Assembly: GCA_043825275.1 (NCBI GenBank)
Contig: JBDRSA010000060.1
Location: forward strand, 1-21,947
Source: Candidatus Omnitrophota bacterium
GTDB taxonomy: Bacteria > Omnitrophota > Gorgyraeia > 2-01-FULL-45-10 > JBDRSA01
Length of the DNA: 21,947 nucleotides
Direction: 5' to 3'
Below are positions 1 through 20,414 of this stretch, in pieces. Numbering within the stretch: the stretch's first letter is position 1; every line of letters starts with the position of its first letter. Under the pieces are notes generated by a model. It did not search any database, was not told the DNA's origin, and saw only the letters and a list, made by a program, of their open reading frames with translations. The position numbers and the translations under genes were made by a program.

Positions 1-3000
1 CTTGTGCATTCCCGCTACAGCACAAATACCTTCCCGACGTGGGACCTCGCGCAGCCGTTCAGGTTTCTCGCGCATAACGGTGAGATCAATACGCTGAGAG
101 GGAACGTCAATTGGATGCGGGCGAAGGAAGACCTGCTCACAAGCCCGCTTTTCGGGAAAGATATTGAAAAACTGAAGCCGATCATCGTGCCTGGAGGAAG
201 CGACTCCGCGGGAATAGACAATATTTCAGAACTACTGCTTCTTGCGGGAAGGCCGCTTGCCCATGTCGTGATGATGCTTATTCCGCCGGCCTGGGAACAG
301 AACAAGCTCATGGCGAAACATGAGAGAGATTTTTTCCGTTATCACGCCTGCCTCATGGAACCGTGGGACGGCCCCGCGGCGATCGCGATCACCGATGGGA
401 CAAGGATCGGCGCTGTCCTTGACCGGAACGGCCTTCGGCCGGCGCGATACCTTGTCACCAAGCGGGGCTTGATCGTCATGGCCTCGGAGGTCGGCGTTCT
501 CGATATACCGGCGTCTGATATCGCTTATTCAGGGAGGCTCGAGCCGGGCAAGATATTCTTCGTCGATACGGATGAGGGAAGGATCATCGATGACAGCGAG
601 CTAAAAAGGTCCGTCTCGACACGGAGGCCGTACGGGAAATGGGCGAACGACAAACTCGTTGACCTCGAAAAACTGTCGAAACCAAAAGAGAAGACGGAAA
701 AGGTCGCGGATCTGAGCCCGACGCTGAAAGCGTTCGGGTATACGCGCGAAGACATGAAGTTTATCATCCAGCCGATGGCAGCCGACGGTAAAGAGCCTAT
801 CGGCTCGATGGGGAATGATACGCCGCACGCTGTGCTCTCGAAAAAACCTCAGGTCCTCTACAGCTACTTTAAGCAGCTTTTCGCCCAGGTCACGAATCCC
901 GCGATCGACCCCATCCGGGAAGAGCTTGTTATGAGCCTTGAATGTTTTATGGGTTCGCGGAAGAATCTTCTCGATGAGACGCCTGACCACTGCCGGAAGG
1001 TCTGGTTGAAGCATCCTATCCTGACGAACGAGGAACTGTTAAAACTGAAGCATATCAACGAGAGCGGCTTTAAGACGAAGACGATCTCGATCCTTTTTGA
1101 CGCCTCCGACGAGAAGAATATGACAACCGCGCTTGACCGGATCTGCAGGGAGGCGAAAAACGCGATAAAAAAGAAGTACACATTCATCGTCCTGAGCGAC
1201 CGGAGGGTTACCGGGGAAAAAGCGGCTGTGCCGGCGCTCCTGGCGGTCGGGGCGGTCCACCAATATCTGGTAAAAAACGCGTCACGCTCACAGATAGCCC
1301 TGATACTTGAGAGCGCGGAACCGCGTGAGGTACACCACTTCGCGGTACTCCTGGGGTTTGGCGTAGGATGCGTAAACCCCTATTTGGCGTATGAGGCCAT
1401 CGACCGTTTGATCGAAGAAGAGCGCCTGAAGATCGACCGGAAGGCGGCGGTAAAGAATTACATAAAAGCGGTCAACAAGGGGATCATGAAGGTCCTCTCG
1501 AAGATGGGGATCTCAACGATCCAGAGCTACCGCGGGGCCCAGATATTTGAGGCGGTCGGCCTTCACGATGAGACGATCGAACGCTGTTTCGCGGGAACTG
1601 TCTCGCGGATCGGCGGGGTAGGGATCAGGGAGATCGCCCGGGAGACGATCCTTAGACATCGAGAAGCGTTCCCGAAGCGGGAAGGGGCAGGTGACCTTCT
1701 TGAGACCGGAGGTCTTTATCAGTGGAAATTGGACGGCGAATTCCACCTCTGGAATCCGAAAAGTATCGCCGCCATCCAGGACGCCTCAAAGAAGAATGAC
1801 TACATCCGCTATAAGGACTTTTCCCGGCTGATCAACGATCAATCCGAACATCCGACGACGCTCAGAAGCCTTCTATCCTTCAAAAAAAGAAAACCGGTCC
1901 TGCTATCCGAAGTCGAGCCGATATCATCCATTGTTACGCGCTTCGCTACCGGCGCGATGAGCTTTGGCTCGATCTCGCGGGCGGCGCACGAGTCGCTCGC
2001 GATCGCGATGAATAAGCTCGGCGGGAAGTCGAACACGGGGGAAGGCGGCGAGGACCCGGTCCGGTTCATGACACTCCCCTCGGGAGAGTCCGCCCGAAGC
2101 GCGATCAAACAGGTCGCGTCGGGGCGGTTCGGCGTAACGGCTAACTACCTGGTGAACGCCGATGAGCTGCAGATCAAGATCGCCCAGGGAGCGAAGCCCG
2201 GCGAAGGCGGGCAATTACCCGGACACAAAGTGAGCTCGACGATCGCTAAGATACGCTATACGACTCCCGGCGTGACGCTCATTTCGCCGCCGCCGCACCA
2301 TGACATCGATTCGATCGAGGACCTGGCGCAGCTTATCTATGATCTCAAGAACGCCAATCCGCGAGCGCGTATCAGCGTAAAGCTGGTATCTGAAGTCGGC
2401 GTTGGTACGATAGCCGCCGGTGTGGCGAAGGGTCATGCCGATATGATACTTATTTCGGGCGGCGACGGCGGGACGGGAGCGTCGCCGCGGAGCTCGATCA
2501 GGCACGCGGGGCTCCCCTGGGAGCTTGGACTGTCGGAAACCCACCAGACGCTCGTCCTGAACGACCTTCGCAGCAGAGTGCGGCTCCAGACCGACGGCCA
2601 GATGCGAACCGGACGCGATGTCGCGATCGCCGCGATGCTCGGCGCCGAGGAGTACGGGTTCTGTACCGCCGCGCTCATCGTGCTTGGATGCGTTATGCTC
2701 AGGCATTGTCACCTGAACAACTGTTCGGTCGGGATCGCGACACAGGACGACTTACTTCAGAAGCGGTTCCGGGGGAACCCTGAGCATGTCGTGAACTACC
2801 TCTCCTTTGTAGCTCAGGAGCTTCGTGAGATCATGGCCTTGCTCGGCATCAGGAAAGTCGACGAACTGATCGGAAGGACCGATCTTTTGGAGATGAACAA
2901 GTCGATGCTGGATTGGAAGACGCGAGGGCTTGATTTTTCAAAAATACTCTATAGACCGAAGGTCCCCCGGCCGGTTGAAGCATATTGCACAAAACCCCAG

Positions 3001-3840
3001 GATCACGGCATAGAGACTGTCCTTGACAAGGAGCTTTTGCGTCTCGCGAAGAAATCTCTTGAGCATCGGGAGCCGGTCCGCCTGTCGTTTGATATCAACA
3101 ATGTGAACAGGACGACCGGGACGATGCTCTCGGGCGAGGTCTGCAGGCGCTATGGTGAATGGGGGCTTCCCGAAGACACCATTTATTGCAAATTTAAAGG
3201 CGTGGCCGGTCAGAGCTTCGGCGCGTTCCTCGCGAGGGGCATTACCTTTGAGCTCGAAGGGATGGCGAATGATTATATCGGCAAGGGGATCTCAGGCGGC
3301 AGGATCATCGTATATCCGGGGGCGGGGTCGTCGTATAAGCCCGAAGAGAATATCATTATCGGGAATACGTCATTTTATGGAGCGATAAGCGGTGAGGCGT
3401 ACATCCGCGGGATCGCCGGGGAGCGGTTCTGTATCAGGAATTCAGGAATATACGCTGTTGTCGAAGGAGTGGGCGACCACGGCTGTGAATACATGACCGG
3501 CGGAAGGGTCATCGTGCTCGGGAAAACCGGGAGGAATTTCGGCGCCGGGATGTCGGGCGGGATCGCGTATATTTACGATATTGACGGCGACTTTAAGAAT
3601 AAGTGCAATAGGGACATGGTGATCTTCGATCGAATGAACGAAGACGACAGCATCATGATCAAGAACCTTCTTGTCGGACATGTAAAGACTACCAAGAGCG
3701 ACCGGGCCCGCTATCTTCTCGGCAATTTAGAAAGCGAAATGAAGAAGATCGTCAAGGTCATGCCCATAGAGTACAAGAGGGTCCTGGAAGGTAAACAGGT
3801 CGAGCAGTCTCTGGGTTTAGGCGAGGCTTCGGATGGATAG
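1..3840 (+). CDS. gltB: Glutamate synthase large subunit, 5' end cut by window edge
   Basis: The frame is open from nt 1, so the GTG at nt 4 is an internal codon. Class-II (Ntn) amidotransferase motifs: HSRYSTNTFP and LAHNGEINT. FMN-domain motifs: QGAKPGEGGQLPGHKV, SPPPHHDI, GGDGGTGASP. 3Fe-4S motif C-x5-C-x4-C (CVMLRHCHLNNC, about nt 2688-2723). C-terminal GXGXG beta-helix domain (GVAGQSFGAF, GVGDHGCEYMTGG). Stop TAG at 3838-3840. Confidence 0.97.
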   Translation, partial: LVHSRYSTNTFPTWDLAQPFRFLAHNGEINTLRGNVNWMRAKEDLLTSPLFGKDIEKLKPIIVPGGSDSAGIDNISELLLLAGRPLAHVVMMLIPPAWEQNKLMAKHERDFFRYHACLMEPWDGPAAIAITDGTRIGAVLDRNGLRPARYLVTKRGLIVMASEVGVLDIPASDIAYSGRLEPGKIFFVDTDEGRIIDDSELKRSVSTRRPYGKWANDKLVDLEKLSKPKEKTEKVADLSPTLKAFGYTREDMKFIIQPMAADGKEPIGSMGNDTPHAVLSKKPQVLYSYFKQLFAQVTNPAIDPIREELVMSLECFMGSRKNLLDETPDHCRKVWLKHPILTNEELLKLKHINESGFKTKTISILFDASDEKNMTTALDRICREAKNAIKKKYTFIVLSDRRVTGEKAAVPALLAVGAVHQYLVKNASRSQIALILESAEPREVHHFAVLLGFGVGCVNPYLAYEAIDRLIEEERLKIDRKAAVKNYIKAVNKGIMKVLSKMGISTIQSYRGAQIFEAVGLHDETIERCFAGTVSRIGGVGIREIARETILRHREAFPKREGAGDLLETGGLYQWKLDGEFHLWNPKSIAAIQDASKKNDYIRYKDFSRLINDQSEHPTTLRSLLSFKKRKPVLLSEVEPISSIVTRFATGAMSFGSISRAAHESLAIAMNKLGGKSNTGEGGEDPVRFMTLPSGESARSAIKQVASGRFGVTANYLVNADELQIKIAQGAKPGEGGQLPGHKVSSTIAKIRYTTPGVTLISPPPHHDIDSIEDLAQLIYDLKNANPRARISVKLVSEVGVGTIAAGVAKGHADMILISGGDGGTGASPRSSIRHAGLPWELGLSETHQTLVLNDLRSRVRLQTDGQMRTGRDVAIAAMLGAEEYGFCTAALIVLGCVMLRHCHLNNCSVGIATQDDLLQKRFRGNPEHVVNYLSFVAQELREIMALLGIRKVDELIGRTDLLEMNKSMLDWKTRGLDFSKILYRPKVPRPVEAYCTKPQDHGIETVLDKELLRLAKKSLEHREPVRLSFDINNVNRTTGTMLSGEVCRRYGEWGLPEDTIYCKFKGVAGQSFGAFLARGITFELEGMANDYIGKGISGGRIIVYPGAGSSYKPEENIIIGNTSFYGAISGEAYIRGIAGERFCIRNSGIYAVVEGVGDHGCEYMTGGRVIVLGKTGRNFGAGMSGGIAYIYDIDGDFKNKCNRDMVIFDRMNEDDSIMIKNLLVGHVKTTKSDRARYLLGNLESEMKKIVKVMPIEYKRVLEGKQVEQSLGLGEASDG

Positions 3841-3861
3841 GGAAGCGAAGAGATCCGATCG

Positions 3862-4088
3862 GTTCATAGTACAAAGTTCATAGTTTGAATTGCGGTTTAC
3901 GGTGTACGGTTAATGGTTTACGGCTAAAAGATCGAAAAAAGAAGCCGATTAGTTCATAGAAAATCAACGTTGAAATCGCGCACATTGCGCTACCGATCGT
4001 TTTTTAGTTTTTATCTCTTTACCGTTCACCGTACACCGTTAACCATAAACCGTGTTAGACTTTGAACTATTGACTATGAACTATGAAC
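3862..4088. repeat. Nested palindromic intergenic element, copy A
   Basis: Outer arm 3862-3889 (AGTTCAT-like heptads) is complementary to 4061-4088 (GAACTAT heptads): 28 positions with 3 mismatches and 3 G-T wobbles, counted by hand. Inner arm 3892-3926 holds 5 ACGGTNN heptads, and 4019-4053 holds 5 NNACCGT heptads. The core of about 90 nt is conserved with the second copy at 20111-20391. Confidence 0.85.
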
Positions 4089-4128
4089 TGCATGGAATTA
4101 CGCGTTTAATACGGCGAACGGAGTTGAG

Positions 4129-5748: not shown

Positions 5749-6243
5749 ATGGCGACCAAAACAGTGAAAAGAATCAACTCTATTCTCAAGAACAGAGAAA
5801 AGAATCCACGTGAATTGATCGAAGTCCTCCAGGATGTCCAGGCAACTTTTAAGTATCTTCCAGAGCAGGAGTTGCGGATCGTTTCTGAAAAGCTGAATGT
5901 CCCCCTCATCGAAGTCTTCAGGGTCGCAAATTTTTATAAAGCGTTCACTTTGAAGCCGCGCGGCAAGCACCTGGTGACGGTATGCATGGGAACCGCATGC
6001 CACGTTCGGGGAGCGCCGAAGTTTGTCGATGAGGTTCTCGGGCAGCTCAGTATAAAACCGGGCGAGACTACCGAAGACGGCATGTTTACCGTTGAGACGG
6101 TGAACTGCCTCGGCGCGTGCGCTCTTGGCCCGATTGTCGTGCTCGATGGAACGTACCATGACCACATGACTACGGGGAAGCTGCGGGATTTGATTCAGAG
6201 CGTTACAAAGAAGAAGAAAGGTAGAAAGCGACGCCATGGTTAA
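5749..6243 (+). CDS. NuoE/HydC/HndA-like thioredoxin-fold [2Fe-2S] subunit
   Basis: 164 aa. Motif VCMGTACHVRG ... NCLGACALGP gives the C-x4-C ... C-x3-C pattern of the complex I 24-kDa family. AGGA Shine-Dalgarno 6 nt upstream. The 3' end overlaps the next gene by 8 nt (ATGGTTAA). Confidence 0.9.
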   Translation: MATKTVKRINSILKNREKNPRELIEVLQDVQATFKYLPEQELRIVSEKLNVPLIEVFRVANFYKAFTLKPRGKHLVTVCMGTACHVRGAPKFVDEVLGQLSIKPGETTEDGMFTVETVNCLGACALGPIVVLDGTYHDHMTTGKLRDLIQSVTKKKKGRKRRHG

Positions 6244-10675: not shown

Positions 10676-11779
10676 ATGAATAAGACAAAAAAGGCAAAAA
10701 TAGTCTTCGAAGACGGAAGGACTTTTGCGGGGAGTTCTTTCGGCGCCGGGGGAACCACCTTCGGCGAAGCTGTCTTCAATACCAGCATGTCAGGCTATCA
10801 GGAGATCCTTACCGACCCTTCCTACAAAGGACAGATCGTCGCCATGACCTACCCGCTTATCGGAAATTATGGGGTCAACTCCGAGGACGTAGAGTCGAGA
10901 AGACCGTTTGTTGAGGGTTTTGTCGTAAAAGAGAGAAGCCGCATCGCCAGCAGCTGGCGGAGCGAGCGGACTCTCGATGAGTATCTTGAGGAGAATGGTA
11001 TTATCGGCATCGAAGGGATCGATACGCGGGCGCTCACCCGGCACATCCGTCTTAAGGGCGCCATGAAAGCGGTCATATCAACCGATGATCTTGATGAGAG
11101 AAGACTAAGAAAAGCCGCGAAGAATTCCCGCGGCCTTACCGGGATAGACCTTGTGAAAGAGGTGCGATACGAAAAGATCACGCGCTGGAATAAGAAGGGA
11201 AAATATACGATCGCTGTTCTCGACTGCGGCGTTAAATTCAATATTCTCAGACGGCTTGATGAAATCGGCTGTAAAGTTGTCGTGGTTCCTTCTGACGCGG
11301 ATGCGGCTACGATACTGGATGAAAAACCGGACGGGATCCTGCTTTCGAACGGGCCCGGCGATCCGGCCGGCGTTCCGTATATTGTCGATACCGTCCGGAA
11401 CCTTATCGGGAAAGTACCGATATTCGGCATCTGCTTCGGACATCAGATGCTGGGGCTTGCTCTCGGCGGAAAGACCTACAAGTTAAAGTTCGGCCACCAC
11501 GGCGGGAACCACCCGGTAAAGGACCTGAAGACCGGCCGCGTCGCTATCACCGTCCAGAATCACAGTTTCTGCGTCGATGTCGACACGCTCAAAAAGAGCG
11601 ATATTGAGATCACCCACATCAACCTGAACGACAATACCCTTGAAGGTATGAGGCACAAAAAGCTCCCGATCTTCTCGGTCCAGTTCCATCCGGAATACGG
11701 CCCCGGCCCGCGGGACGCGGTGTATTTGTTCGGCGAGTTCGTAGATATGGTGAAGAAGCATGCGAAGAAGGGTCGATAA
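10676..11779 (+). CDS. carA: Carbamoyl-phosphate synthase small (glutaminase) subunit
   Basis: 367 aa. N-terminal FEDGRTFAGSSFGA and FNTSMSGYQEILTDPSY. Triad GATase motifs GICFGHQ and VQFHPE. Confidence 0.97.
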   Translation: MNKTKKAKIVFEDGRTFAGSSFGAGGTTFGEAVFNTSMSGYQEILTDPSYKGQIVAMTYPLIGNYGVNSEDVESRRPFVEGFVVKERSRIASSWRSERTLDEYLEENGIIGIEGIDTRALTRHIRLKGAMKAVISTDDLDERRLRKAAKNSRGLTGIDLVKEVRYEKITRWNKKGKYTIAVLDCGVKFNILRRLDEIGCKVVVVPSDADAATILDEKPDGILLSNGPGDPAGVPYIVDTVRNLIGKVPIFGICFGHQMLGLALGGKTYKLKFGHHGGNHPVKDLKTGRVAITVQNHSFCVDVDTLKKSDIEITHINLNDNTLEGMRHKKLPIFSVQFHPEYGPGPRDAVYLFGEFVDMVKKHAKKGR

Positions 11780-11790
11780 AAGGAAAGCCT

Positions 11791-11976
11791 GTCATTGCGA
11801 GTCCCGCGAAGCGGGGCGAAGCAATCTCCCGAACGAAGCGAGGGGGTCTTTTAGTAATTCTGACAGAGATTGCTTCGTCGCGGAGCTAAGTAAAAGTGGG
11901 GCGCTTCTCGCAATGACGAAGAGGGAAATAACTTCGTCGCGGAGCTAAGTAAAAGTGGGGCGCTCCTCGCAATGAC
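11791..11976. repeat. REP-like palindromic repeat cluster (GTCATTGCGAG ... CGAAGCAATCTC family)
   Basis: Unit 1 spans 11791-11828 and has an internal CCCGC-GAA-GCGGG hairpin. An inverted unit runs GAGATTGCTTCG (11866-11877) to CTCGCAATGAC (11907-11917). A 46-nt direct repeat occurs at 11872-11917 and 11931-11976, with 2 mismatches and a 59-nt period. Confidence 0.8.
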
Positions 11977-11992: not shown

Positions 11993-13474
11993 ATGCCAAA
12001 AAGAACTGATATAAAAAAGATACTGATCATCGGCTCCGGGCCGATCGTGATAAGCCAGGCCTGCGAGTTCGACTATTCCGGCACCCAGGCCTGCAAAGCG
12101 CTCCGTGAAGACGGGTACAAAGTAGCCCTTATTAATTCAAATCCCGCTACGATCATGACCGACCCCGATATGGCGGATGCGACGTATATTGAGCCGATAA
12201 CGCCGGAAGTCGTCGAGAAGATCATCGAGAAAGAACGGCCCGACGCGATCCTGCCGACGCTTGGCGGGCAGACCGGGCTCAATACGGCCATGAAGATCTG
12301 CGAAATGGGCGTTCTCAAGAAGTACAACGTGAAGATGATCGGCGCGAATTATAATGTTATCAGGAAAGCCGAAAACAGGAACGATTTCAAAAAGGCGATG
12401 CTGAAGATCGGCCTCGACCTGCCGAAGAGCATGCTCGCGCATAGCATGAACGGCGCGCGGAAAGCTCTTAAAAAGATAGGCCTTCCGGTCATTATCCGGC
12501 CGAGTTTTACGCTCGGGGGCACCGGCGGCGGGATCGCGACGACGAAAGAAGAGTTCGAGTATATCGTTGCCCTGGGGCTCAAAAACAGTATGACCAGCGA
12601 GGTCCTGATCGAGGAGTCGATCGTCGGGTGGAAAGAGTACGAGCTCGAAGTGATGCGCGACATAAAAGACAACGTCGTTATTGTCTGTTCGATCGAGAAT
12701 CTCGATCCGATGGGGATCCACACGGGGGACTCGATCACGGTCGCGCCGCAGCAGACCCTGACCGACCGTGAGTATCAGACGATGCGCGACGCGGCGATCG
12801 CGATCATGCGTGAGATCGGCGTCGCGACGGGCGGGTCGAACGTACAGTTCGCCGTGAATCCCAAAAACGGAAGGATGGTCGTTATCGAGATGAATCCGCG
12901 CGTATCGAGGAGCTCCGCGCTCGCCAGTAAAGCGACCGGGTTTCCGATCGCGAAGTTCGCGGCGAAGCTTGCCGTCGGTTATACGCTCGATGAGATACAG
13001 AACGACATAACGAAAGAGACGCCGGCTTCGTTCGAGCCGACGATTGATTACTGCGTCGTGAAGATCCCGAGATTTACGTTCGAGAAGTTTCCCGAAGCGA
13101 AGGATATCCTCGGTATTTCCATGAAATCGGTCGGAGAAACGATGGCGATCGGCAGGACGTTCAAGGAAGCGATCCAGAAAGGATTACGCGGTTTAGAGAT
13201 CGGCCATGTCGGGCTCGACAACAAGAAATCGTTCAGGAAGATACCGGACAGCAAGATGTACAAGCGCCTGAAAGAGCCGAACGCGTCGAGAATATTCTAC
13301 GTAAAATACGCCCTTCAGAGGGGGATGAGCGTCAGGAAGCTCGCGGATATTACCGGTATCGACCCCTGGTTCATTCACAACATTAAAGAGATCGTCGATC
13401 TGGAGAAAAAGATAAAACAGGTTGCCAGTTGCCAGTTGCCAGAAAACAGAGAAAAAAATTCCCGCTGCCGATAG
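11993..13474 (+). CDS. carB: Carbamoyl-phosphate synthase large subunit, N-terminal portion of a frame-interrupted copy
   Basis: 493-aa [27 protein letters not shown], an ATP-grasp domain, and part of the oligomerisation domain. Homology to the downstream full-length paralog stops near the A7 run. The last residues ([17 protein letters not shown]) are partly repeat-encoded or out of frame. Confidence 0.9.
13421..13441 (+). repeat. Heptanucleotide tandem repeat (GTTGCCA)x3 inside the carB frame-overlap zone
   Basis: Exact copies at 13421-13427, 13428-13434 and 13435-13441. An A7 homopolymer follows 10 nt downstream at 13452-13458. Confidence 0.95.
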
Positions 13475-15231
13475 ACCTTCTAAAAAAGGCGAAGGAATTT
13501 GGGTTCAGTGACTGCCAGATAGCGGAGCTCATTGGTTCAGACGAGCTTGCTGTTCGCGGAGGTCGAAAAAAACTGGGTGTCCAGGCGACCTTTAAACTGG
13601 TCGATACCTGCGCGGCCGAGTTTGAGGCGTATACGCCGTATTACTATTCGACGTATGAATCCGAAGACGAATCGCGCCCTTCGAAAAAGAAGAAGATCAT
13701 GATATTGGGCGGCGGGCCGAACAGGATCGGACAGGGGATCGAGTTTGACTATTGCTGCTGCCACGCTTCGTTCGCGCTGAAAGAGCTTGGTTATGAGACA
13801 ATCATGGTGAACTCAAATCCCGAGACCGTATCGACCGATTACGACACTTCCGACAAGCTCTATTTTGAGCCGCTTACATTTGAAGACGTGATGAACATTG
13901 TCGACAGAGAAAGGCCGGATGGGGTAATAGTCCAATTCGGCGGGCAGACGCCTTTGAATCTCGCTAAAAAACTCCTTGACGCGGGTGTCCCCATAATCGG
14001 CACCTCGGTCAGATCTATCGATAACGCTGAAGACAGGGACAAGTTCGCGAAGCTTATCAGAAAGCTGAAGATCGACCAGCCGCCAAACGGCTCCGCGACC
14101 TCAGGAGAGGAAGCGCTGAAGATCGCGCGGCGGATCGGATACCCGATCCTGGTGCGGCCGTCATATGTGCTCGGCGGAAGGTCCATGAGGATCGTTTATA
14201 ACGATTCGTCGCTGAAAACTTTTATTAAAGAGGCCGCGGATACTTCACGGGAGCTTCCGATCCTGATAGACAAATTCCTTGAGGATGCCGTTGAGGTCGA
14301 CGTCGACGCGATTTCAGACGGAACGATGACCGTTATCGGCGGTATCATGGAGCACATTGAGGAAGCCGGGGTTCATTCCGGCGACTCGGCATGCGTGCTT
14401 CCGCCGCATACGCTGAGCGATGAGATCATCAATACGATACGGGATCATACGATCGCGATCTCAAAAGAGCTTAAAGTCGTCGGCCTTTTGAACATTCAGT
14501 TCGCGGTTAAAAACGATGTGGTATTTGTCCTCGAGGTAAACCCGAGGGCGTCGAGAACCGTGCCGTTCGTCAGCAAAACGATCGGTGTCCCGCTCGCGAA
14601 ACTCGCGGCAAAGGTTATGACGGGAAAGACCCTGCGTGAACTCGGATTCACCAAAGAAAAGCATATTGAACATATTTCGGTAAAGGAATCGGTGCTTCCG
14701 TTCTCAAGGTTTTCAGGAGTCGATATACTGCTCGGGCCTGAGATGAAGTCGACCGGCGAGGTCATGGGTATCGATACTTCGTTCGGCGTGGCCTTCTATA
14801 AAGCGCAGGCCGCGGCTGGACACGTCCTTCCGAAAAGCGGCAAAGTTTTTATCAGCGTCAAGAATGACGATAAGCGCGACGTGGTCTTTCTCGCGAAGAG
14901 ATTATGCGACATCGGATTTGAGATCCTCGCGACAAAAGGGACCGCCAAGGTTTTCAGGTCAAATGCCATAAAAGCAAAAACGCTCGGGAAGATCGGTGAG
15001 GGGCACACCGAACTGCTGGACCTTATCAAAAAGGGTGAGATACATCTTATTATTAATACTCCATCGGGCCAGCGGGGGCAGTCTGACATGAAGCCGATCC
15101 GCAGCCTTGCGGTCCTGCAGGGGATACCGTGCATAACGACGATCCAGGGAGCTCAGGCGACGGTAAACGGCATTGATTCAATAGCGAAAAAAGAACTTAC
15201 GGTCCGATCGATCCAGGAGTATCTTTCTTGA
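13429..15231 (+). CDS. carB: Carbamoyl-phosphate synthase large subunit, C-terminal portion of the frame-interrupted copy
   Basis: This frame is -1 relative to 11993-13474 and is open from 13387. Homology begins at [16 protein letters not shown] (nt 13459 onward). Second ATP-grasp ([20 protein letters not shown]) and MGS-like allosteric domain are present. The TTG start given in the ORF track has no convincing Shine-Dalgarno. Confidence 0.88.
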
Positions 15232-15353: not shown

Positions 15354-18565
<3,212 letters not shown>

Positions 18566-18581
<16 letters not shown>

Positions 18582-20107
18582 TAGCGATCCTTGACTTCGG
18601 AAGCCAGTACACGCACCTGATCGCCAGGCGTGTCAGGGAGTGCGGGGTGTATTCCGAGATCGTGCCGTATACGATCACAAAAAAAGAGCTGCTCGAGAAA
18701 GACCCGAGCGCCCTGATCCTTTCGGGCGGGCCGGCGAGCGTGACCACAAAGAAAGGCCCCCGCTGCGATCGCGAGATCTTCTCGTTAGGTATTCCGGTCC
18801 TCGGGATCTGTTACGGGGCGCAGCTGATGGCGGAGATGCTCGGCGGGAAGGTTAGCGCGGCGCGCGCGCGTGAGTACGGCAAGGCGTCACTGACGATCAA
18901 GTCGAGAATATCACTTTTAAAAGGGGTGGGACAGACCGAGACGGTCTGGATGAGCCACGGCGATAAGATCACGATGCTTCCTTCCGGTTTTCGTATTATC
19001 GGATCGACCGACAACGCGCATGTCGCGGCGATGGAGGATGGATCGCGGAAATTCTACGGCGTGCAGTTCCACCCTGAAGTCGTCCACACGCCGAAAGGAA
19101 AACAGATCTTCGCCAATTTTGTTCATGGGATCGCCGGCTGCAAAGACGGCTGGAACATGAAGTCGTTCGTCAAGAGCCAGATAGGGGCACTGCGGGAGAG
19201 ACTCGGGAACGACAAAGTTCTCTGCGCGTTGAGCGGGGGCGTCGATTCGTCCGTTTTGACGGTGCTCTTACGTGAAGCGATCGGGAAGAACCTCATTGCG
19301 GTCTTTATCGATAACGGTGTTCTCAGGAAAGACGAAGCGCGTCTTGTGAAAGACAGGTTCAAGAACAAATATAAGATTAACCTGAAGCTTGTTGACGCAA
19401 GCGATATATTTCTCAAGCGGCTCAAGGGTGTGAGCGATCCCGAGAAGAAGCGGAAGATCATCGGAATGACCTTTATTTCCGTATTCGAAAAAGAGGCGAA
19501 GAAGATCGGCGCAATAAAGTACCTGGCGCAGGGGACGCTCTACCCTGACGCGATCGAATCGGTATCGCCGACCGGCGGCCCGTCGGCGATGATCAAGAGC
19601 CATCACAATGTCGGCGGACTTCCGAAGCGGCTGAAGTTCACGCTTATCGAGCCGCTCAGGGACCTCTTTAAAGATGAAGTGCGGCTTGTCGGCAAAGAGC
19701 TCGGGTTGCCGGACGAACTTGTGTACCGGCAGCCGTTTCCCGGCCCGGGACTTGCGGTGCGGATCATCGGGTCGATCACCAGGAAACGTCTTGATGTACT
19801 GCGTGAAGCGGACTGGATACTTGTCGATGAGATAAAACGCGCCGGGTTCTATCGGGATCTTTGGCAGTCGTTCTGTGTTCTTCTGCCGATCAAGACGGTC
19901 GGTGTCATGGGCGACCAGAGAACGTATGAGAACGCGGTCGCGATACGCGCGGTAACGAGTGAAGACGCGATGACGGCCAACTGGGCGCGGCTTCCGTATG
20001 ACCTTCTTGAAAAGGTTTCGAACAGGATCATTAATGAGGTGCAGGGCATCAACCGTGTTGTGTATGATGTCTCATCGAAGCCGCCGAGCACGATAGAGTG
20101 GGAATAG
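18566..20107 (+). CDS. guaA: GMP synthase (glutamine-hydrolysing)
   Basis: 513 aa. [18 protein letters not shown], GATase Cys in GICYGAQ, FHPE, ATP-PPase P-loop SGGVDSSV, C-terminal PPSTIEWE. The start overlaps the carB stop by 16 nt. Confidence 0.97.
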
Positions 20108-20110
20108 AAC

Positions 20111-20391
20111 AGTTCATAGTTCAAAGAGGATGTCCCGCAGGCGAACCATGGACTTTGAACTGATCAGATTACCAGTAGTTGTAAGAATGAAATTACGGTT
20201 TACGGTGCACGGTTAACGGTTTACGGTTAAGATCGAAAAAACAACCGATTAATCCGAAGAAGATCAGCATTGAAATTTGCATATTGCGTTATTGATCATT
20301 TTCAGCTCTTTTTTACCGTTCACCGTACACCGTTAACCGTAAACCGTCTCTGTTCTCCGAACTATGAACTATGTACTATGAACTTTGAACT
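20111..20391. repeat. Nested palindromic intergenic element, copy B
   Basis: Inner arms: 5 ACGGTNN heptads at 20195-20229 and 5 NNACCGT heptads at 20313-20347. The right inner arm differs from copy A at one base. The core at 20230-20312 is alignable to copy A. Outer heptads are AGTTCATAGTTC (20111-20122) and GAACTAT/GTACTAT/GAACTTT (20359-20391). The left flank carries about 70 nt of extra sequence, including GACTTTGAACT in the right-arm orientation. Confidence 0.85.
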
Positions 20392-20414
20392 AAATGGGAG
20401 TTAAGTAGCCAACC

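Follow-up and report, generated by a model that had tools for sequence, protein, structure and literature searches.

A tandem carB copy in an Omnitrophota contig is one nucleotide short at a length-variable loop

The gene carB, which encodes the large subunit of carbamoyl-phosphate synthase (CPSase), is naturally split in Aquifex aeolicus and Methanocaldococcus jannaschii. Disrupted genes that slippage might rescue are known, selection against slippage-prone runs is typically seen at 9 nt, and functional slippage is accepted only if the layout of two open reading frames (ORFs) recurs in non-identical homologs (PMC1088944). In -1 ribosomal frameshifting, heptamers without stimulators were found to reach at most about 10 times the 0.05% background in Escherichia coli; AAU is a "heterogeneous" A-site codon and a poor shifter, and frameshifting has been proven for one insertion sequence (IS) cluster with the motif A_AAA_AAC, in which the last codon also specifies Asn (PMC4066793). 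Here, we describe carB1, the first of two tandem carB copies on contig JBDRSA010000060.1 of the GenBank assembly GCA_043825275.1, a Candidatus Omnitrophota metagenome-assembled genome (MAG). The whole contig of 21,947 bp was analyzed and is called the window below. carB1 lies directly downstream of an intact carA, is present as two overlapping frames, ORF1 and ORF2, and is the sole broken gene in these 22 kb.

carB1 is one ordinary orthologous carB, one nucleotide short. It matches the carB equivalog profile (NF003671/TIGR01369) from end to end: residues 1–478 of ORF1 correspond to positions 1–477 of NF003671, and ORF2, from its residue 13 (the L of FPLP, where homology starts at about 13459), to positions 478–1057. 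The two halves thus abut at 477|478, which bears out a preliminary description of this DNA as a single carB with a -1 break at which homology switches frames. The single uninterrupted ORF of about 1070 aa that is expected of the family is replaced in carB1 by products of 493 and 600 aa. ORF1 encodes about the first 483 residues of the CPSase large subunit, comprising the carboxyphosphate-synthetic half and the first part of the oligomerization domain, and ends in an out-of-frame tail (its last five residues, NSRCR). ORF2 encodes the remaining oligomerization domain, the carbamoyl-phosphate-synthetic half and the allosteric (MGS) domain. Together, the two pieces score higher (843 + 861 bits) than the intact second copy, carB2 (1519 bits), and residues 397–618 of E. 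coli CarB were matched at E = 1e-77. Each piece alone exceeds the whole-protein cut-off of 599 bits, which is why both were named carB by the annotation pipeline; GenBank carries two separate coding sequences (CDS), both as "carbamoyl-phosphate synthase large subunit" and with no pseudogene flag. MFH1996012.1 and MFH1996013.1 are halves of one frameshifted gene and should be treated as a pseudogene or as a sequence to correct.

Relatives do not share the break. When the fused product was searched against 5.8 billion proteins, all of the 120 best matches listed were single proteins (77–81% identity; 1068–1122 aa), those with a named source being mostly from Omnitrophota. The same was observed at the DNA level, where comparison with related genomes, proposed in the preliminary description as a check, revealed one unbroken frame across the junction in 76 of 79 genomic loci; L010, L017 and L020 differ in that they end at residues 550–553. 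A break at the carB1 loop was therefore seen in 0 of the 120 best proteins listed and 0 of the 79 loci compared. A 46-aa Logan peptide that represents the 90% cluster of ORF1 (P0248) was set aside as unrelated; it is not encoded in the window and is apparently a clustering artifact. A literature search for a description of carB in Omnitrophota returned nothing relevant.

The frame change is confined to positions 13421–13461 (Table 1). The -1 frame is open from 13387 to its stop at 15231, and variant translations showed that a -1 shift at any point of the doubly open zone gives a full-length product. The limits of this zone had been given exactly in the preliminary description, which also correctly placed a perfect GTTGCCA repeat 10 nt upstream of an A7 run and an A_AAA_AAT heptamer (13453–13459) in -1 phase with ORF1 (frame-0 codons GAA AAA AAT), the run lying 13 nt before the stop codon. 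Overlooked at that time was a putative frameshifting motif, G_AAA_AAG, in the same open overlap. Several repairs fuse the ORFs. One extra A (A8) gives the continuous product that had been predicted, although of 1079 aa and not about 1078 aa; as had also been stated, one or four heptamer copies restore a single ORF (1074 and 1081 aa, respectively, the two ends of the range of all single-ORF repairs), and the frames are likewise fused by A5 or by insertion of one T at 13459, neither of which the earlier account mentions. With two or five heptamer copies, or with A6, the ORFs stay separate. A change in the unit number of an intragenic simple repeat thus toggles the frame of carB1. The open overlap itself is unremarkable, as about one-third of 24-codon stretches lack a stop. 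The heptamer array, on the other hand, is far from a chance event: about 1e-4 perfect 21-nt arrays of this kind are expected per 22 kb, and this is the sole perfect three-copy heptamer array in the window. Runs of seven A, by comparison, are common in the window and occur in intact genes.

Table 1. Coordinates of carA, of the two carB copies and of the tracts at the carB1 junction in the window.
Feature	Position	Strand	Evidence
carA, glutamine-hydrolyzing small subunit, intact	10676..11779	+	Pfam CPSase_sm_chain + GATase; NCBIfam TIGR01368, 506 bits (cut-off 307); GenBank MFH1996011.1
carB1 piece 1 (ORF1, 493 aa)	11993..13474	+	Translation; NF003671 profile 1–477, 843 bits; GenBank MFH1996012.1
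Zone with frame 0 and frame -1 both open, 85 nt	13387..13471	+	Translations, variant translations
G_AAA_AAG in frame 0 (GAG AAA AAG)	13405..13411	+	Sequence; A_AAG tetramer class of -1 shift-prone motif (PMC4066793)
Perfect (GTTGCCA)x3 tandem repeat	13421..13441	+	Tandem Repeats Finder, 3.1 copies, 100% matches
carB1 piece 2 (ORF2, 600 aa from annotated TTG 13429)	13429..15231	+	Translation; NF003671 profile 478–1057, 861 bits; GenBank MFH1996013.1
A7 run, A_AAA_AAT in frame 0 with flanking bases	13452..13458	+	Sequence, homopolymer census, variant translations
Frame-0 stop TAG ending piece 1	13472..13474	+	Sequence, translation
carB2, intact divergent paralog, 1075 aa	15354..18581	+	NF003671, 1519 bits over profile 1–1057; Shine-Dalgarno GAAGGAGAGG before ATG 15354; GenBank MFH1996014.1

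The break falls at about residue 483 of carB1. In an alignment with E. coli CarB, the junction was mapped to residues 480–484, where carB1 has a 10-residue insertion, that is, inside the oligomerization domain and not at the inter-half boundary, as previously proposed. Across the 120 orthologs, the loop segment at this place (the part of each ortholog that aligns with 50 residues of the fused product) was found to vary from 36 to 76 residues. It is usually rich in K/R and often internally repetitive, and relatives have repeats of their own there: KSKSKIKIKIKIKRK in L001, and RNQKPENRNQK, from GAAACCA-like heptads, in L081. This length variation, together with the separate repeats, indicates that the loop is a natural hot spot for slippage-type length change and that such indels are the normal mode there. 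The CarB oligomerization-domain loop thus emerges as a site of slippage-type length change across Omnitrophota, and the break in carB1 is probably a slipped-strand indel of the ordinary kind, placed in a tolerant loop of a carB that is normal in all other respects.

The two parts of carB1 are well preserved. In a leave-one-out test with the 120 orthologs, the fused protein was observed to retain 385 of 386 invariant columns, the exception being a change of L to I, and to depart from the family at 6 of the 625 near-invariant ones, three in each half, a number equal to the median of the intact orthologs. The ratio of C-terminal to N-terminal identity is 0.945, versus 0.928 ± 0.014 in the orthologs, so that the part encoded by ORF2 is no more diverged than that encoded by ORF1. 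The search of carB1 for signs of decay (more frameshifts or stops, an excess of changes at conserved sites, faster divergence downstream) returned none; the lesion is single. It is therefore very young, not real, or harmless. This result is at odds with a plain pseudogene that has accumulated degenerative mutations, which the preliminary description had offered as one outcome.

With moderate confidence, we favor a real and recent null or leaky allele of carB1 that is buffered by the intact carB2. The gene would have been interrupted by one net length change of -1 nt (equivalently +14 nt) within the DNA for a hypervariable, insertion-tolerant surface loop of the oligomerization domain. Strand slippage at an adjacent simple tract may have caused this change, by gain or loss of GTTGCCA units from an in-frame ancestral state of one or four copies, by shortening of A8 to A7, or by shortening of TTT to TT at 13459. 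The allele would most likely be real in the sequenced DNA and very young. Its main product would probably be a truncated protein of 493 aa, with full-length CarB1 formed at most in traces, through slippage that is not programmed, at the A7 run or at the A_AAA_AAT or G_AAA_AAG motif, and the allele would be tolerated because the tandem paralog can supply the activity. If the allele is real and polymorphic, it would represent a modest case of paralog-buffered gene loss in progress in a lineage with a reduced genome.

A real change is supported by the presence of the perfect non-triplet array within the interval of about 40 nt to which the frame change is confined. Short-read assemblers are not known to invent a tandem repeat stretch of 14 nt. 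If the ancestor was in frame, the shortest path to the present state would be an expansion from one to three heptamer copies, and the one-copy reading resembles basic loops such as AARRKSRRKGKKDFPLD in P0039. In addition, an independent Logan assembly of SRR26275509 was found to be 100% identical to the window over 2984 bp (positions 17241–20224 only), which argues for accurate reads.

Several points weigh against the favored reading. The lack of decay is predicted equally well by a miscall of A8 as A7. Same-species sequence was not found in any collection searched: exact look-ups of ORF1 and carA gave no match, a gapped DNA pattern across the junction gave none in metagenome contigs, the best identity was 81% for the full-length protein query and 71% for a 230-aa junction query, and a 62-aa junction query gave no candidate in an index that apparently masks the window's own proteins. 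Comparisons of loop DNA were observed to split over the changed tract. Frame 0 through the A run is favored by L002 (GAA AAA AAT ATT CCG) and by one register of L081 (CCA GAG AAC AGA), and the -1 frame by L003 (AAA TTC CCG) and P0039. The pairing of carB2 with the single carA is putative. Finally, the intact carB of L056 holds an in-frame perfect heptamer array, (TCACTCG)x3.7 at 1907–1927, and therefore such an array need not be a lesion.

Two arguments were dropped in the course of this comparison. One held that an in-frame threefold heptamer is impossible, to which the intact L056 gene is a counterexample. The other assigned the lesion to one tract from the loop DNA of relatives, in which A-rich repeats align in several registers; the lesion is not assignable among the A run, the T pair and the heptamer copy number.

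Heptamer arrays were also noted as a more general feature of carB surroundings. The L056 array lies in the carB linker of a Thermodesulfovibrionia MAG, and perfect heptamer arrays of three to four copies are over-represented around the carB loci of unrelated MAGs, with six in 720 kb, compared with zero or one each for other periods (5, 6 and 8–12). Further examples near carB are found in L015 (3268–3295), L026 (5242–5269) and L033 (3858–3963).

The second copy, carB2, is the likely functional back-up for carB1, with which it shares 53% protein identity and 60% DNA identity. The length of 1075 aa previously given for this paralog holds only from its second ATG, the one with a Shine-Dalgarno sequence. 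The carA-carB1-carB2 tandem recurs in the Omnitrophota contigs L081, L001 and L004, and a carB2-like and carB1-like pair is also present in a Pelovirga MAG (L031); the carB1 ortholog is intact in each of these. In metabolic reconstructions of the MAG, carB2 and not carB1 should be taken as the secure CPSase. The tandem pairs lie at 5869–12649 in L081, in second hits of L001 and L004, and at 630–3824 and from 4001 onward in L031. Their identities to the window copies are about 80% for the carB1 type and 65–70% for the carB2 type (70% in L081), with one adjacent carA only. Within the window, 45 nt are identical between carB1 (13708–13752) and carB2 (17025–17069), with 15 of 15 third codon positions matching, and about 190 nt around this stretch show about 85–93% identity; one possible origin is gene conversion between the tandem copies over a short tract.

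An artifact of assembly, sequencing or strain consensus is a possible but rather unlikely origin of the break. In that case, the carB1 of the organism would be intact, with, e.g., A8 or TTT, and the contig would be one base short at a homopolymer, where a one-base deficit is the classic error mode. The intact state of both halves and of all relatives fits such an error, as does the source of the sequence, a MAG contig. Moreover, 2 of 12 looked-up window proteins were found in the SRR26275509 Logan assembly, which suggests low coverage in that run, and the sequence read by L003 in frame resembles the A8 repair. On the other hand, the frame is kept at all nine other coding homopolymers of 7–8 nt on the contig, which include four A7, three A8 and one G8. 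The remaining contig genes are unbroken, and the Logan contig is base-identical where it overlaps the window. An artifact also leaves the perfect non-triplet tandem array beside the break unexplained.

It is very unlikely that carB1 encodes a functional two-piece enzyme, in which the 493-aa and 600-aa pieces would assemble non-covalently and the C-piece would be made from TTG 13429 or by reinitiation after the TAG that ends ORF1, in the manner of naturally split carB but with the cut in a surface loop. Both pieces are perfectly conserved, and the cut lies in a hypervariable, insertion-tolerant loop; proteins tolerate chain breaks best in such loops. The phylum has split carB genes (L010, L017 and L020), GenBank annotates two CDS, and the overlap of the ORFs is compatible with coupling. 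The start of the C-piece, however, is not credible. Its only candidate start codons, TTG 13429 and ATG 13699, both lack a Shine-Dalgarno sequence, unlike most genes on the contig; the TTG lies within the heptamer repeat and arises as its by-product, and a scan of 13100–13800 for sites resembling promoters or terminators gave none. None of the relatives compared is split at the carB1 loop, the natural splits being 70 residues downstream. The earlier judgments that ORF2 has no convincing Shine-Dalgarno sequence or ATG and that a designed split carB is unlikely therefore both hold.

Equally unlikely is the wider proposal that carB1 is kept as a switchable or leaky gene, whose full-length protein would arise only on a heptamer change (three copies to four or one), on slippage of the ribosome or at the A run, or in the form of two pieces cut in the oligomerization loop. 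If true, the CPSases of a host-dependent Omnitrophota cell would comprise a constitutive enzyme (carB2) and a second one whose dosage simple-sequence slippage sets in a stochastic or heritable manner; a core enzyme of nitrogen or pyrimidine/arginine metabolism would then be under control of the contingency type. The junction was compared with what such devices contain. The in-phase X_XXZ_ZZN heptamer is present. A stimulatory element is not: no RNA structure rises above shuffles downstream of or around the slippery site (folds of 13459–13560, z -0.92, and 13380–13520, z -0.39), no GGAG or AGGA lies within 20 nt 5' of it as a Shine-Dalgarno-like stimulator, and no Rfam family matches the junction. 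The run of seven A falls short of the length for transcriptional slippage (about 9 or more A or T in many bacteria). Given the short run, the AAU class and the lack of a stimulator, any read-through at carB1 would be expected, from the E. coli data, to be only a sub-percent unprogrammed leak. On the favored reading, the junction is not a conserved or designed recoding or switching device.

Regulated expression is the least tenable explanation. In one form, programmed -1 frameshifting at A_AAA_AAT or G_AAA_AAG, or transcriptional slippage at the A7 run, would keep full-length CarB1 at a fixed low ratio; in the other, phase variation of the heptamer or A run would turn the gene ON or OFF heritably. 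The phase-variable or slippage-dependent expression raised in the preliminary description finds no positive support: the 85-nt doubly open zone of this undecayed gene does hold two mutable tracts and two or three motifs prone to shifting, and the proven IS-cluster motif and the slippage-rescuable genes introduced above are precedents, but the two-ORF layout occurs in no non-identical homolog among the 120 best proteins listed and the 79 loci, unstimulated heptamers are weak, AAU shifts poorly, and contingency loci, for which a repeat of three units and a run of A7 would be short, do not typically affect core biosynthetic genes.

The proteins of the window (GenBank MFH1996006–016) are encoded by gltB, a gltD-like gene, NuoE/F-like and ferredoxin genes, a GltS-like gene, carA, carB1, carB2, guaA and an amidophosphoribosyltransferase gene, and this set is a nitrogen-assimilation and nucleotide cluster. 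The carA-carB1 spacer contains a 33-nt exact direct repeat (11873–11905 and 11932–11964) within a 59-nt unit present twice; just 5' of the carB1 start, it holds inverted motifs (cattgcgag/ctcgcaatg) that resemble repetitive extragenic palindromes. Two other intergenic regions, 3841–4128 and 20108–20414, share a nested-palindrome architecture of about 250 nt made of heptamer arrays, in the order (GTTCATA)n, (TTACGGT)n, a core of about 80 nt, (ACCGTAA)n and (GAACTAT)n, with 27 nt identical between the copies (4018–4044 and 20312–20338). One lies 5' of the gltD-like gene and the other 5' of the amidophosphoribosyltransferase gene. Neither an Rfam match nor a copy among the 82 related loci was found. 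The two regions could represent a repeated element, regulatory or palindromic in kind, that precedes glutamine-dependent enzymes.

Other divided forms of carB were encountered among the sequences compared. L010 (2256–3908), L017 (4001–5662) and L020 (4001–5662) carry only the N-half of carB, of 550–553 aa and ending in YYSTYDK*, followed by unrelated genes; they are genuine N-half genes, naturally split at the classical point between the halves, and the C-half presumably lies elsewhere in the genome. Many proteins of 200–400 aa among the hits of the 230-aa junction query (e.g., P0146, P0166, P0209 and P0215) cover only the oligomerization domain and the beginning of the second CarB half. Because their contigs are long (up to 2.2 Mb), truncation at contig ends does not account for them, and they are probably frameshift-fragmented carB or unrecognized multi-piece carB.

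How does carB1 compare with the known systems? Naturally split carB likewise consists of an N-piece and a C-piece. The natural splits, however, are at the end of the oligomerization domain (residues 550–553), with starts of their own and often unlinked genes, whereas in carB1 the break is in the loop at about residue 483, the two ORFs overlap in different frames and no credible start is present for the C-piece; carB1 thus shows neither the inter-half cut nor the independent C-piece start of a natural split. Simple-sequence contingency loci and carB1 have in common that a non-triplet intragenic repeat and a homopolymer set the frame, but carB1 has only three units and A7, and it encodes a core biosynthetic enzyme and not a surface or restriction-modification function. 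With dnaX (A_AAA_AAG) and the IS911/IS3 frameshift sites (PMC4066793), carB1 shares an in-phase X_XXZ_ZZN heptamer (A_AAA_AAU), an upstream A_AAG tetramer and a long conserved -1 ORF. In dnaX and the IS elements, both products are functional by design; carB1, by contrast, has no hairpin, pseudoknot or internal Shine-Dalgarno sequence, presents a poor A-site codon and has a layout that is absent from relatives. The "authentic frameshift" genes (PMC1088944) differ from carB1 in that runs of 9A or 9T were analyzed there, as opposed to A7, and in that the heptamer repeat and the T pair are equally good candidates for the lesion in carB1. As in that group, nevertheless, carB1 is a housekeeping-type gene broken at an A run, its homologs are single ORFs, and one extra A, templated or untemplated, would restore the product; its status as a pseudogene is therefore debatable.

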